DNA of 64,000 nucleotides from an uncultured Collinsella sp. (GTDB lineage: Bacteria > Actinomycetota > Coriobacteriia > Coriobacteriales > Coriobacteriaceae), in NCBI GenBank assembly GCA_900540935.1, contig UQHW01000001.1, positions 43,867 through 107,866 of the forward strand. The letters run 5' to 3'. How positions within the stretch are numbered: the stretch's first letter is position 1; every line of letters starts with the position of its first letter. The notes beneath the pieces were generated by a model. The model was not told the DNA's origin and ran no database searches. It worked only from the letters and a program-made list of their open reading frames with translations. Of the stretch, positions 9,204 through 48,046 are shown piece after piece. The position numbers and the translations under genes are program-made.

Positions 9204-9391
9204 CTCCCGGTGACGTTAATGATTCTTGCTGAGGCCCTCACCATAGATACGCTTTGACCGAACGAAATGTTTCAAATTCAAGCAGGAATAACCTACCAAA
9301 AAACCCTGCCCCTTATTGGCAAGGGATCGACGGAACGCAACAGGTTGAGCATACGCAAGCGAGCGGCCCCCAGAGCGTACAAGGTGGCATG

Positions 9392-9433
9392 AAAAAGGCA
9401 GGGCATTGACCTTTTGGTCATGCCCTGCCTTTT
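9392..9433 (-). terminator. rho-independent terminator downstream of rpoC, enclosed by an outer 14 bp inverted repeat (9363..9376 / 9449..9462)
   Basis: Minus-strand hairpin aaaaggcagggcatgacc...ggtcaatgccctgcctttt followed by a T-run. The outer arms are gcggcccccagagc / gctctgggggccgc. Confidence 0.6.
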
Positions 9434-9506
9434 GAATGACAGATTGTAGCTCTGGGGGCCGCGCAGCGACGGAGATCGCCGCCGTTCGTTAGAACGGCGG
9501 AACTAG

Positions 9507-46274: not shown

Positions 46275-46359
46275 GGGTGGGAGCTATAGGATTCGAACCT
46301 ATGTAGGCAGAGCCAACGGGTTTACAGCCCGTCCCCATTAACCACTCGGGCAAACTCCC
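46275..46359 (-). tRNA. tRNA-Tyr (GTA)
   Basis: About 85 nt with a long variable arm. Anticodon loop CTGTAAA. Confidence 0.8.
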
Positions 46360-46421
46360 AATCGTTCAAGTATCCGCAGGTCCTTTGGTCTTTTGGACCG
46401 CCGCCCCCGCGAACGAAGAAG

Positions 46422-46452
46422 ATAATACGATGCCACCTTGGGAGCTGTCAAC
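46422..46452 (-). promoter_or_regulatory. strong sigma-70-like promoter for the tRNA-Tyr/Thr/Met (and possibly tuf) unit
   Basis: Minus strand: TTGACA, 18 nt spacer, TATTAT, about 55 nt upstream of the tRNA-Tyr 5' end. Confidence 0.5.
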
Positions 46453-46663
46453 GAAAACCTCTAGATACACGGCTCCGGGCGTATCTATATAGCTTTGACC
46501 TGCCGTTTTGCTGAGTTTGGATGTGAAGGACGGTGGATTTTGCTGCACTGGTGACATTTCCCAAGGGAACACTTTGGCATAGTGGAGTAAGCCTGCGGAT
46601 TCTTACTTCGATAACGACTCATTTGCACCTATATATAGGTCGAGATCGGGCCTCCGCGGCAAA

Positions 46664-46810
46664 TTCGAGCGTGGATTTTCTCCCGTTTGAAATCGAGCGT
46701 GGATAATCTCCCACTTTTGGCATGGCCCCAAGGCCAAAGTGGCAGATTATCCACGCTCATTCTCCAGGCGGGAGCTTTTCCACTCTCGTGTGTCCGAATA
46801 TCCACGCTCG
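46664..46810. promoter_or_regulatory. cluster of five DnaA-box-like 9-mers (TTATCCACG / CGTGGATAA and variants)
   Basis: gagcgtggatttt, gagcgtggataat, gattatccacgctc, ttttccact, aatatccacgctc. Two direct and three inverted copies within 150 bp. Confidence 0.4.
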
Positions 46811-46834
46811 ATGACGATGACCAACCTCGTCCCA

Positions 46835-46990
46835 GCTTCAGTCTCGATCTGTAACAGTAAGAGGGTTATTCCTCCCCTATCTGTTACAGATTGAGATATT
46901 ACGCAGAGACCCCAGCTCACGTCTCATTCTGTAACAGTAAGAACGGTTTTTCGCCCCTTCGTGTTACAGATCGAGACAAACCTGAAGCTA
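46835..46990. repeat. nested palindrome: two tandem hairpins with 11 bp stems (atctgtaacag / ctgttacagat) inside an outer ~25 bp inverted repeat
   Basis: The loops share taaga..ggtt.tt..c.cccct. The outer arms are cagcttcagtctcgatctgtaacag / ctgttacagatcgagac..ctgaagctag. Confidence 0.6.
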
Positions 46991-47019
46991 GGTTGCGCCA
47001 AACCCGCTGACTTATCGAC

Positions 47020-47060
47020 AAAAAAGAAACGGGCCCTGTCCCACAAGGGGACAGAGCCCA
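47020..47060 (-). terminator. rho-independent terminator after tRNA-Thr(TGT)
   Basis: gggctctgtcccc...ggggacagggccc hairpin followed by a T-run on the minus strand. Confidence 0.6.
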
Positions 47061-47069
47061 AAACTCTCA

Positions 47070-47144
47070 TGGAGCCAGTGACAGGAATCGAACCTGCAAC
47101 CCACTGATTACAAATCAGTTGCGCTACCGTTGCGCCACACTGGC
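47070..47144 (-). tRNA. tRNA-Thr (TGT)
   Basis: 75 nt, anticodon loop TTTGTAA. The overlapping 99 aa track ORF is a tRNA-derived artefact. Confidence 0.8.
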
Positions 47145-47368
47145 ACACTTGGCGCTTTCGCGCGAAGCCAGTTAAGAATAAAGGAATTGCGGACGGGGTG
47201 CAACAGACCCTTTGACCGACCACATCTCAAAACCCTTCGTCAGAACGAATAGTTTTATCCGTTCGCCAAAACCAAAAACTATTCGTTTTGACGATGCCAA
47301 GCCGCAACCCATTGATTACAAACTAGTTGGTTGGTCAATCGAGAAAGCAGCTCCCCATAGAAGGTTTC

Positions 47369-48046
47369 CTACCGTCCGCGCAGGGCCTTGAGCTTGGCCA
47401 AGGCCTCGGGGCTCAAGCGGCTGCCCAGGGTCATCTTGATCTGCGGGGCCTCCTCGGCCTCGTGAACGTCGTTATCGATCTGTTTGATCTCGTCCACCAG
47501 CATACGGCTCGAGATGCGCGTAACGCCCTTCCCCATGACAACGGCCTGGATCGTGCCGTCACTCGATACCACGGAGCACGCGCGGCCTTCCTCGCGTGCC
47601 TCGATGCAGAGCTTCTGCACCACGGTATCGGCAGAGACGCCCGTCGGCGAAAACTCGATGCGCACACCGCGGGCCGGCAGGTTGGGGCGCTCGCTGGAGA
47701 TATTGCCCGCGCCGTCAAATACGATCACAGCCTCGTAGCGGCCCTGGGCAAACGCAGCTACGTCATTAATGAGCGCCGTGCGCGCCATATCGTGAACGTC
47801 GCTGGAATACGGATCGTCAGAATGGTCGTACACGAGCTTTTCGTAGCGCGGCGTACAGTGGATCACGTTGTAGCCGTCGACCACCAGCAGCTCGGGCTTG
47901 TTGGAGTGCACCGTCGAGACCGGATCGGCGATGGCCTGCGCAAACGCATTGCCGCCCACGCCATAGGTCGCGGCCGAAACAATCGGCTTGGCCGAGCCCT
48001 CGCCAAAGCGCTTGGCCTTGGACTTGGCGCGGTTCTTTTTGGACAT
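47369..48046 (-). CDS. NYN-domain ribonuclease (YacP/Rae1-like)
   Basis: LLVVDGYNVIH...VIVFDGAG PIN-like NYN core. Canonical position next to rlmB and cysS. Confidence 0.75.
   Translation of the reverse strand: MSKKNRAKSKAKRFGEGSAKPIVSAATYGVGGNAFAQAIADPVSTVHSNKPELLVVDGYNVIHCTPRYEKLVYDHSDDPYSSDVHDMARTALINDVAAFAQGRYEAVIVFDGAGNISSERPNLPARGVRIEFSPTGVSADTVVQKLCIEAREEGRACSVVSSDGTIQAVVMGKGVTRISSRMLVDEIKQIDNDVHEAEEAPQIKMTLGSRLSPEALAKLKALRGR

Follow-up and report, generated by a model that had tools for sequence, protein, structure and literature searches.

Can a cluster of DnaA-box-like strings beside a tRNA gene be taken as a site of DnaA control, or may it be something else that resembles one? This question is raised by the spacer between tRNA-Tyr and tRNA-Thr(TGT) in a 64,000-nucleotide stretch of DNA (the window) from an uncultured Collinsella sp. 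(assembly GCA_900540935.1, contig UQHW01000001.1, positions 43,867 to 107,866). The original prediction described an unusually long spacer with five close DnaA-box matches and a compound palindrome. The unusual length was confirmed, although the spacer measures 709 bp (46361-47069, ARAGORN tRNA calls) and not 650 bp. We consider it likely that this spacer is a mosaic of two families of palindromic repeats, similar to miniature inverted-repeat transposable elements (MITEs) and repetitive extragenic palindromic (REP) sequences, lying in an insertion hotspot. The apparent DnaA-box cluster is a locally expanded copy of one dispersed MITE/REP-like element, and the compound palindrome is a two-unit array of a second dispersed family with alternating arms TCTCGATCTGTAACAG and a fixed 23-nt loop. 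These small non-coding repeats would have built up in the interval that separates the tRNA-Thr(TGT) terminator from the conserved promoter driving the tRNA-Tyr/Thr/Met-tuf operon in Collinsella aerofaciens, and they would have no dedicated role in replication control.

The motif and the hairpin units belong to dispersed repeat families

Five copies of a 20-nt motif (consensus tCGAGCGTGGATAATCTCCC), two on the plus and three on the minus strand, are found at 46665-46811. They are the five best matches of the whole window and all lie inside 150 bp; by chance, about five matches with at most three mismatches are expected window-wide. We refer to them as M1 to M5, and to the repeat of which they are part as the M element. 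Values of pi in the lists below are nucleotide diversities over 47 distinct island-free spacers.

46792..46811, minus strand: M5, TCGAGCGTGGATATTCGGAC, counterpart, in the dispersed M family, of the outer direct copy (GAGCGTGGATTTTCGGACAC)
46770..46789, minus strand: M4, ACGAGAGTGGAAAAGCTCCC, similar, when set against the family consensus, to the left arm of an additional, outer M core
46741..46760, minus strand: M3, ATGAGCGTGGATAATCTGCC, left arm of the 56-nt core palindrome; site of a 4-kb phosphotransferase system (PTS) island in relatives; pi 0.037
46693..46712, plus strand: M2, TCGAGCGTGGATAATCTCCC, right arm of the core palindrome; pi 0.024
46665..46684, plus strand: M1, TCGAGCGTGGATTTTCTCCC, similar to the outer core's right arm; many relatives lack it
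46695..46758, no strand: core palindrome of the M element, with 31-nt arms and a variable centre; member of the dispersed family GTGGATAATCTCCCACTTTGAG-N14-CAAAAACGGGAGATTATCCAC

Scanning a metagenome collection for the M3-M2 palindrome (pattern GTGGATAATCT-N20-50-AGATNATCCAC) revealed at least 87 distinct palindromes, on human-gut contigs of 51-62% G+C (at least 120 contigs among the matches listed). Six of the 122 sites listed lie beside the tRNA-Tyr promoter, at least 81 are clearly at other loci and 35 are too near a contig end to be placed. Single contigs can hold two or three copies (L317, L334), and L317 belongs to Collinsella, as it encodes a protein with 96% identity to one from a Collinsella metagenome-assembled genome. 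The consensus of 82 unique copies reads GAGCGTGGATTTTCGGACAC, N9-10, aCGAG[A/C]GTGGATAATCTCCCACTTTGAG, N14 (variable), CAAAAACGGGAGATTATCCAC[T/G]CTCaT, and conservation drops sharply at both of its ends. Of 91 family copies, 54 have the outer direct copy, at a fixed offset of 33 nt upstream of the core. Apart from a single position, at which the arm pair covaries (A-U 34, C-G 13, G-C 2), the arms are invariant. Copies are intergenic and occur in every gene-orientation context without bias.

The canonical M unit consists of one outer direct copy followed by a 56-nt palindrome with arms of about 20 nt, GAG[A/C]GTGGATAATCTCCC, and a variable centre, and the TTATCCAC string is part of the inverted-repeat arm. 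Judged by sequence, the cluster in the window represents such a unit, with M5 as outer copy and M3-M2 as core. M4 and M1 would be the arms of a second core enclosing the first, since their tails (CTCCCGCCTGGAG and CCCGTTTGAAA) match the left and the right arm type, respectively. Across 69 variants the invariant block of M3 is GTGGATAATCT; that of M2 is TCCACGCTCGA, and the TTAT segment of M2 varies freely, without compensation in M3.

MITEs and mobile insertion cassettes such as Correia/NEMIS, RUP and MIC231 are non-autonomous derivatives of insertion sequences (IS). The M element is likewise short and non-coding, with terminal inverted repeats of about 20 nt, invariant in the 56-nt core, around a variable centre. 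Its copies are many, dispersed and intergenic, and they are polymorphic for presence and absence, with empty and filled alleles at this locus; the arrangement in the window looks nested, and copies flank a transposase-less cargo island in relatives. In contrast to MITEs, the M element comes without a cognate IS in our searches and without a clear family-wide target-site duplication, it has an extra subterminal direct copy on one side only, and its copy number in this strain is apparently very low. TCGA flanks the cluster in the window and a single TCGA is found at the empty site; it may belong to the palindrome. We also considered the motif as the end of a resident IS21 or IS30 element and rejected this, because the IS ends in the C. 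aerofaciens record described below differ. Arm pairs 0.4-4 kb apart were absent from 917 kb of metagenome contigs, and scans of viral contigs for the M motif returned chance single matches, coding repeats or nothing.

Two further repeats were observed in the vicinity of such elements. A third dispersed family, a palindromic element of about 150-170 nt, lies at 9334-9506 of the window just downstream of rpoC and consists of an outer pair GGCCCCCAGAGC...GCTCTGGGGGCC around a terminator-like hairpin. Its 43 matches (75-83% identity) are spread over 33 of 120 Collinsella-like metagenome contigs and often lie at most 100 nt from an M-type palindrome. A recurrent hairpin, GTAGTCGTTGGGGACGTTCTTAAACGACTAC (variant ACTCATTGGGGACGTACTTAAATGAGT), often adjoins an M-type element as well (metagenome loci L314, L332 and L347, for example). 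Intergenic regions of Collinsella seem to be built of several co-occurring repeat modules.

The compound palindrome of two near-identical hairpins proved to be real, and its units are as follows.

46921..46977, no strand: hairpin unit A, arms 46922-46937 and 46961-46976, loop 23 nt; arm pi 0.045-0.061 against 0.141 in the loop
46841..46897, no strand: hairpin unit B, arms 46842-46857 and 46881-46896, loop 23 nt

Both units are 57 nt long and they are 77% identical; four 16-nt arms are present where 0.23 would be expected by chance. Locally, the motif cluster and the hairpin pair both far exceed what chance would give. Over 271 units of this family the arm is the 16-nt TCTCGATCTGTAACAG, its orientation alternating about every 40 nt, and 268 units have a loop of exactly 23 nt, the sequence of which varies. 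BLAST placed the family at 15-23 positions in a 900-kb Collinsella aerofaciens record, to which the spacer of the window aligns over its full length at 80% identity. This record (NZ_OY725717.1, 899,693 bp, "plasmid 6" in PLSDB) carries ribosomal-protein operons, tuf, recA, ftsK and aminoacyl-tRNA synthetases, and is a fragment of the C. aerofaciens chromosome mislabelled as a plasmid. It contains a second hairpin array between convergent DeoR and RluA genes; a reading of its first 200 kb gave no further hairpin or M copies. Outside this spacer, hairpin arrays were found in 13 metagenome contigs, and in three IMG/VR contigs (63-64% G+C) three-unit arrays adjoin a tyrosine-recombinase-like gene in a prophage that contains KilA-N. 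The spacer itself had no BLAST match among phage genomes.

Short extragenic palindromic units in many copies and in arrays of alternating orientation are traits of REP sequences and bacterial interspersed mosaic elements (BIMEs). As with the REP/BIME repeats of Enterobacteria and Pseudomonas, the copy number of the hairpin family varies, and its arrays are found at gene 3' ends and at insertion sites. The two differ in that the sequence of the hairpin family is unrelated, its 16-nt arm forms no stem-loop by itself, the 23-nt arm spacing is strictly fixed although its sequence varies, and the family lacks the GTAG-type 5' signature. That IS elements target REPs is known from Tobes and Pareja 2006, as cited in PMC7771070. 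Our literature searches found these repeat elements undescribed in Collinsella; as far as they went, at least two dispersed palindromic families are undescribed in a genus that is among the commonest human-gut actinobacteria. The repeats are practical markers for strain typing and probably account for assembly breaks and rearrangements in genomes of Collinsella.

Variable islands at the spacer

All ten strains with an identical NYN protein have the spacer, in which hairpin units number two or three and motif copies between two and five. In one of these relatives (L001) a 3.5-kb island lies in the spacer, another (L005) has a 2.5-kb GmrSD island, and in L007 and L009 a 4-kb island encodes PTS EIIBC, a family-1 glycosidase and an RpiR regulator. 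Sister Collinsella species (tuf 91-93% identical) and Parolsenella keep the order NYN, tRNA-Thr, tRNA-Tyr and tuf around a spacer of 187-325 bp. These sister spacers have neither M motif nor hairpins, and only the promoter and a palindrome containing GATACGCCCGG are conserved in them; therefore, about 500 bp of the spacer are specific to the C. aerofaciens complex.

Using the conserved promoter and the GATACGCCCGG palindrome as anchors, we collected at least 120 Collinsella loci, with one genome per species. The architecture is constant among the loci listed, namely tRNA-Thr, hairpin array, M cluster and promoter, and each part is variable. Hairpin units range from 2 to 8 and M copies from 0 to 5, with none at seven loci. 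In alleles without M, the segment between two TCGA is precisely missing and a single TCGA is left. A 4.05-kb PTS island sits precisely at M3, splitting the motif cluster, in 30 of 80 scorable loci, and is flanked by an imperfect direct repeat of 23-30 bp that ends at GGATAAT. Other islands (GmrSD/DUF262 and unknowns) are located between terminator and hairpins or within hairpin arrays. The stretch of spacer between terminator and promoter is non-essential. As far as the literature search went, this hypervariable insertion hotspot between tRNA-Thr and the tuf operon, with its exchange of islands for sugar utilisation and defence, is likewise undescribed.

The recurrent nature of one type of insertion was seen in L005, L197, L210, L230 and L240, in which a 2.3-2.5-kb island in the interval between terminator and hairpins encodes a 621-aa protein (with GmrSD_N and GmrSD_C domains in L005). 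In L207, an unrelated 632-aa protein is encoded beside a 391-aa protein in the same spacer. The spacer may therefore also be a hotspot for defence islands. We further asked if the M sites could be operators of the RpiR regulator of the PTS island. This was rejected, since the sites are located at gene 3' ends in the island and stay conserved in genomes that have no island.

Relatives carry different accessory islands at or between repeat copies, and the site is a hotspot of insertion and deletion. The simplest reading of the form in the window is an "empty" state of the 4-kb PTS/6-phospho-beta-glucosidase/RpiR island, the island ends being direct copies of M3. A recombinase or transposase acting in trans, or a host protein, would recognize the conserved arms, and recombination between copies would yield the island-free form.

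A related proposal takes the M motifs and hairpin arms as att-like targets of a site-specific recombinase that is encoded elsewhere and moves islands at this tRNA-adjacent hotspot. Several observations are in line with it. Besides the direct repeat around the PTS island, the island of L001 lies between copies of a duplicated hairpin arm, L004 has arms fused at GGAT|TATCC, and a hairpin array adjoins the prophage tyrosine-recombinase-like gene. In one genome the 28-nt M3-M2 segment is inverted compared to all others (variant CTCCCACTTTTGGCGTGCCACTGGGCCCAAAGTGGGAG), and therefore short inverted arms can mediate inversion. The island state differs from that of the nearest neighbour in 24 of 80 loci. 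However, neither the spacer in the window nor any island examined contains an integrase, the islands are not bounded by a tRNA 3'-end repeat (the sole tRNA-like repeat is weak and derives from the tRNA 5' end), and the two repeat copies at the ends of the PTS island disagree at about 6 of 30 positions, which makes the event old. Plain homologous recombination between repeats accounts for the same patterns, and we regard dedicated att-like sites as unlikely. The suggestion of a degenerate att/arm-site region at a tRNA locus comes close in one part, the indel hotspot just downstream of tRNA-Thr with islands flanked by repeat copies; an integrase, a tRNA-derived att repeat and an arm-site architecture were not found.

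Constraint on the repeat arms and the DnaA question

Comparison of the 47 island-free spacers gave low diversity in the promoter (pi 0.020) and in the M2 and M3 cores (0.024 and 0.037). Hairpin arms reach 0.036-0.083, whereas the hairpin loops are at 0.14-0.20, the linkers at 0.2-0.36 and the filler at 46500-46661 at 0.154. Therefore, motif cores and hairpin arms are under sequence constraint and the surrounding DNA is not.

This constraint is among the points that weigh against a mosaic of MITE/REP-like repeats. Cores of M2 and M3 that are conserved like a promoter imply a present-day sequence-specific function, which mere repeat clutter would not explain, and the invariant part of M3 (AGATTATCCAC) equals the first eight bases of the DnaA box. 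Furthermore, other M copies were not found in about 330 kb of readable C. aerofaciens DNA, and the element may be single-copy and no longer mobile in this strain. A search, far from exhaustive, found no autonomous element or transposase with matching ends. Target-site duplications are not evident in the flanks of family members, and a nearest-neighbour analysis, with flanks 98-99% identical, gave no polarity of gain or loss for M or the PTS island.

A more far-reaching proposal would make both families the cis sites of an undescribed, trans-encoded Collinsella recombination system that shuttles integrase-less accessory and defence islands, loosely like integron attC sites, with TTATCCAC recruiting DnaA as a host factor, in the manner of Tn5 ends. 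If this were true, the fixed 23-nt spacing and the promoter-like conservation of the arms would reflect recognition by a protein. We consider such a system very unlikely.

Could the palindromes act as RNA? In this reading, the hairpins and the 150-nt nested palindrome would terminate transcription or insulate the tRNA-tuf promoter against read-through from tRNA-Thr or an island, or they would encode a small RNA. The minus strand folds at -300 kcal/mol (z = -13.7), but palindromes fold well on either strand whatever their function. Hairpin arrays are found at the 3' ends of genes, and in island-bearing genomes the M3-M2 palindrome lies about 40 nt past the rpiR stop codon; however, a T-run follows neither element, and M-family copies show no orientation bias relative to genes. 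One arm pair covaries (the A-U, C-G and G-C counts given above), while changes in the TTAT of M2 are not compensated in M3. Rfam 15, at gathering and permissive thresholds, gave tRNAs only, and just sub-threshold matches to microRNA-type hairpins in the spacer. A structured non-coding RNA, which had been one of the roles suggested for the spacer, is thus unsupported, with no Rfam family match, no orientation bias versus neighbouring genes and a single covarying base pair, and we judge an RNA or insulator function improbable.

This leads to DnaA itself. Scored against TTATCCACA, the five copies match at 8/9, 8/9, 7/9, 7/9 and 6/9 positions. The number of copies and their orientation, two direct and three inverted, were thus described correctly, but to call them close matches was an overstatement, as none is perfect. 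Matches of at least 8/9 to TTATCCACG are not enriched window-wide (12 found versus 9.2 expected). What the copies share is a 14-20-mer, which reaches past the box into GAGC on one side and TCTCCC on the other. A DnaA-binding cluster of five TTATCCAC-containing motifs could serve titration or modulation, as do datA, the DnaA-reactivating sequences (DARS) and the clusters of Bacillus and Streptomyces, or control of the tRNA-tuf promoter. It would be in agreement with the two copies that equal TTATCCACG (8/9), with AGATTATCCAC being invariant in all 69 variants of M3, with the xxxTCCACG kept in M2, and generally with motif cores under constraint. However, in addition to the imperfect boxes in the window, a perfect box is present in 0 of 106 family arms, the deviation falling on the covarying position, and a change at box position 9 reportedly weakens binding of E. 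coli DnaA (Schaper and Messer 1995). Conservation does not stop at the box and runs on into GAGC and TCTCCC. The motif forms the arm of a repeat that is dispersed, with its palindrome present at 81 or more other sites. Sister species lack the cluster, close relatives have 0 to 5 copies of the motif, and an island splits the cluster in 30 of 80 scored loci. We therefore hold binding of DnaA as the role of this cluster to be highly doubtful.

Known DnaA-box clusters are locus-specific, consist of consensus boxes and keep their position among relatives. The cluster in the window resembles datA, DARS and the clusters of E. coli, Bacillus subtilis and Streptomyces in having, away from oriC, several box-like strings of mixed orientation packed into about 150 bp of non-coding DNA. 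In contrast to these, it is a copy of an imperfect dispersed repeat, and relatives do without it. The original prediction had itself named lack of conservation in close relatives as one half of the evidence that would speak against a DnaA-titration or DnaA-regulated site, the other half being different oriC boxes; in such relatives the cluster was found to be absent or unconserved. A dedicated DnaA-titration or regulatory locus conflicts with the absence from sister species, the close relatives without M, the frequent split by an island and the identity with a dispersed repeat. A tempting false lead, a second DnaA control locus, is thereby removed, and the case illustrates that a motif shared through a repeat can mimic a cluster of binding sites.

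Nor is the locus a replication origin, since the flanking genes are co-directional (cysS ... rplA, all on the minus strand), a turning point of GC skew is missing and tblastn of E. coli DnaA against the plasmid collection detected no dnaA in the 900-kb record in which the locus lies. Cumulative GC skew, proposed earlier as a check on the position of the locus, reaches its maximum near 28 kb of the window and does not turn at 46-47 kb.

A weaker contact with DnaA is conceivable. The outside and mosaic ends of Tn5 carry a single DnaA site each, and transposition uses DnaA as a host factor (PMC3347997). The M arms are similar to the Tn5/IS50 ends in that a DnaA-box-like string lies inside a terminal repeat. 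At Tn5 both binding and effect were demonstrated experimentally, whereas the boxes in M are read from sequence and are imperfect in every copy. By this analogy, weak binding of DnaA to M arms may occur.

Boundaries of the spacer and neighbouring genes

The repeats are enclosed by a terminator on one side and by a promoter region on the other.

47070..47144, minus strand: tRNA-Thr(TGT), upstream boundary of the spacer (ARAGORN; Rfam tRNA, 71.5 bits)
47020..47060, minus strand: intrinsic terminator of tRNA-Thr(TGT), a 13-bp G+C-rich stem followed by TTTCTTTTTT (terminator scan); pi 0.094 among strains
46500..46661, no strand: filler of low conservation that separates the M cluster from the promoter region, including the CCTATATATAGG palindrome at 46629-46640; pi 0.154 over 47 unique spacers
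46463..46486, no strand: conserved palindrome AGATACACGGCTCCGGGCGTATCT directly upstream of the -35 box, its GATACGCCCGG half nearly invariant in Collinsella and Parolsenella
46422..46451, minus strand: sigma-70-type promoter TTGACA-18-TATTAT of the tRNA-Tyr/Thr/Met-tuf operon, with 11 of 12 consensus matches; pi 0.020
46275..46360, minus strand: tRNA-Tyr(GTA), downstream boundary of the spacer (ARAGORN; Rfam)

The near-consensus promoter of the tRNA-Tyr/tuf operon is located about 60 nt upstream of tRNA-Tyr, and its elements GTTGACA and TA.TAT are invariant across genera in the comparison of Collinsella and Parolsenella. The palindrome AGATACACGGCTCCGGGCGTATCT is a candidate regulator site or UP-like site of this very highly expressed operon. 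The AT-rich ctatatatag palindromes noted earlier are present at 46631-46640 and 46484-46493. The open reading frames of the spacer overlap and are short.

We also weighed whether the motifs might be promoter, LexA, parS, dif or NrdR-box sites and set this aside; the sole resemblance is that of CCTATATATAGG to the NrdR-box core, and it is not conserved. The string CACCTATATATAGGTG at 46626-46641, like the CCTATATATAGG palindrome, resembles this core, and C. aerofaciens has nrdR. However, it is a single site with no nrd gene nearby, and many relatives have CCTATGTAATAG instead; the box-like string is probably non-functional.

On the minus strand, the gene order is cysS, rlmB, the NYN/YacP gene (47369-48046), tRNA-Thr(TGT), the spacer, tRNA-Tyr, tRNA-Thr(GGT), tRNA-Met, tuf, rpmG, tRNA-Trp, secE, nusG, rplK and rplA. 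The match of the spacer to the 900-kb record, together with EF-Tu, assigns the window to Collinsella aerofaciens. The EF-Tu encoded in the window is 99% identical to the most abundant cluster found (P0001), and its nearest named relatives, at 91-93% identity, are Collinsella. In the ten strains with identical NYN protein, a gene of 446-460 aa lies on the opposite strand between NYN and tRNA-Thr, and its product has an HTH_17 domain and a weak HipA_C-like kinase match. We considered this neighbouring gene as a possible integrase and rejected it, as it combines a helix-turn-helix with a HipA_C-like kinase and is missing from the window. The window lacks this 1.34-kb gene (47222-47368 compared with 10679-12130 of L002), while an inverted repeat, cgaatagtttt...aaaactattcg, remains at 47240-47285. 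In other strains, this inverted repeat sits upstream of the HTH_17 gene.

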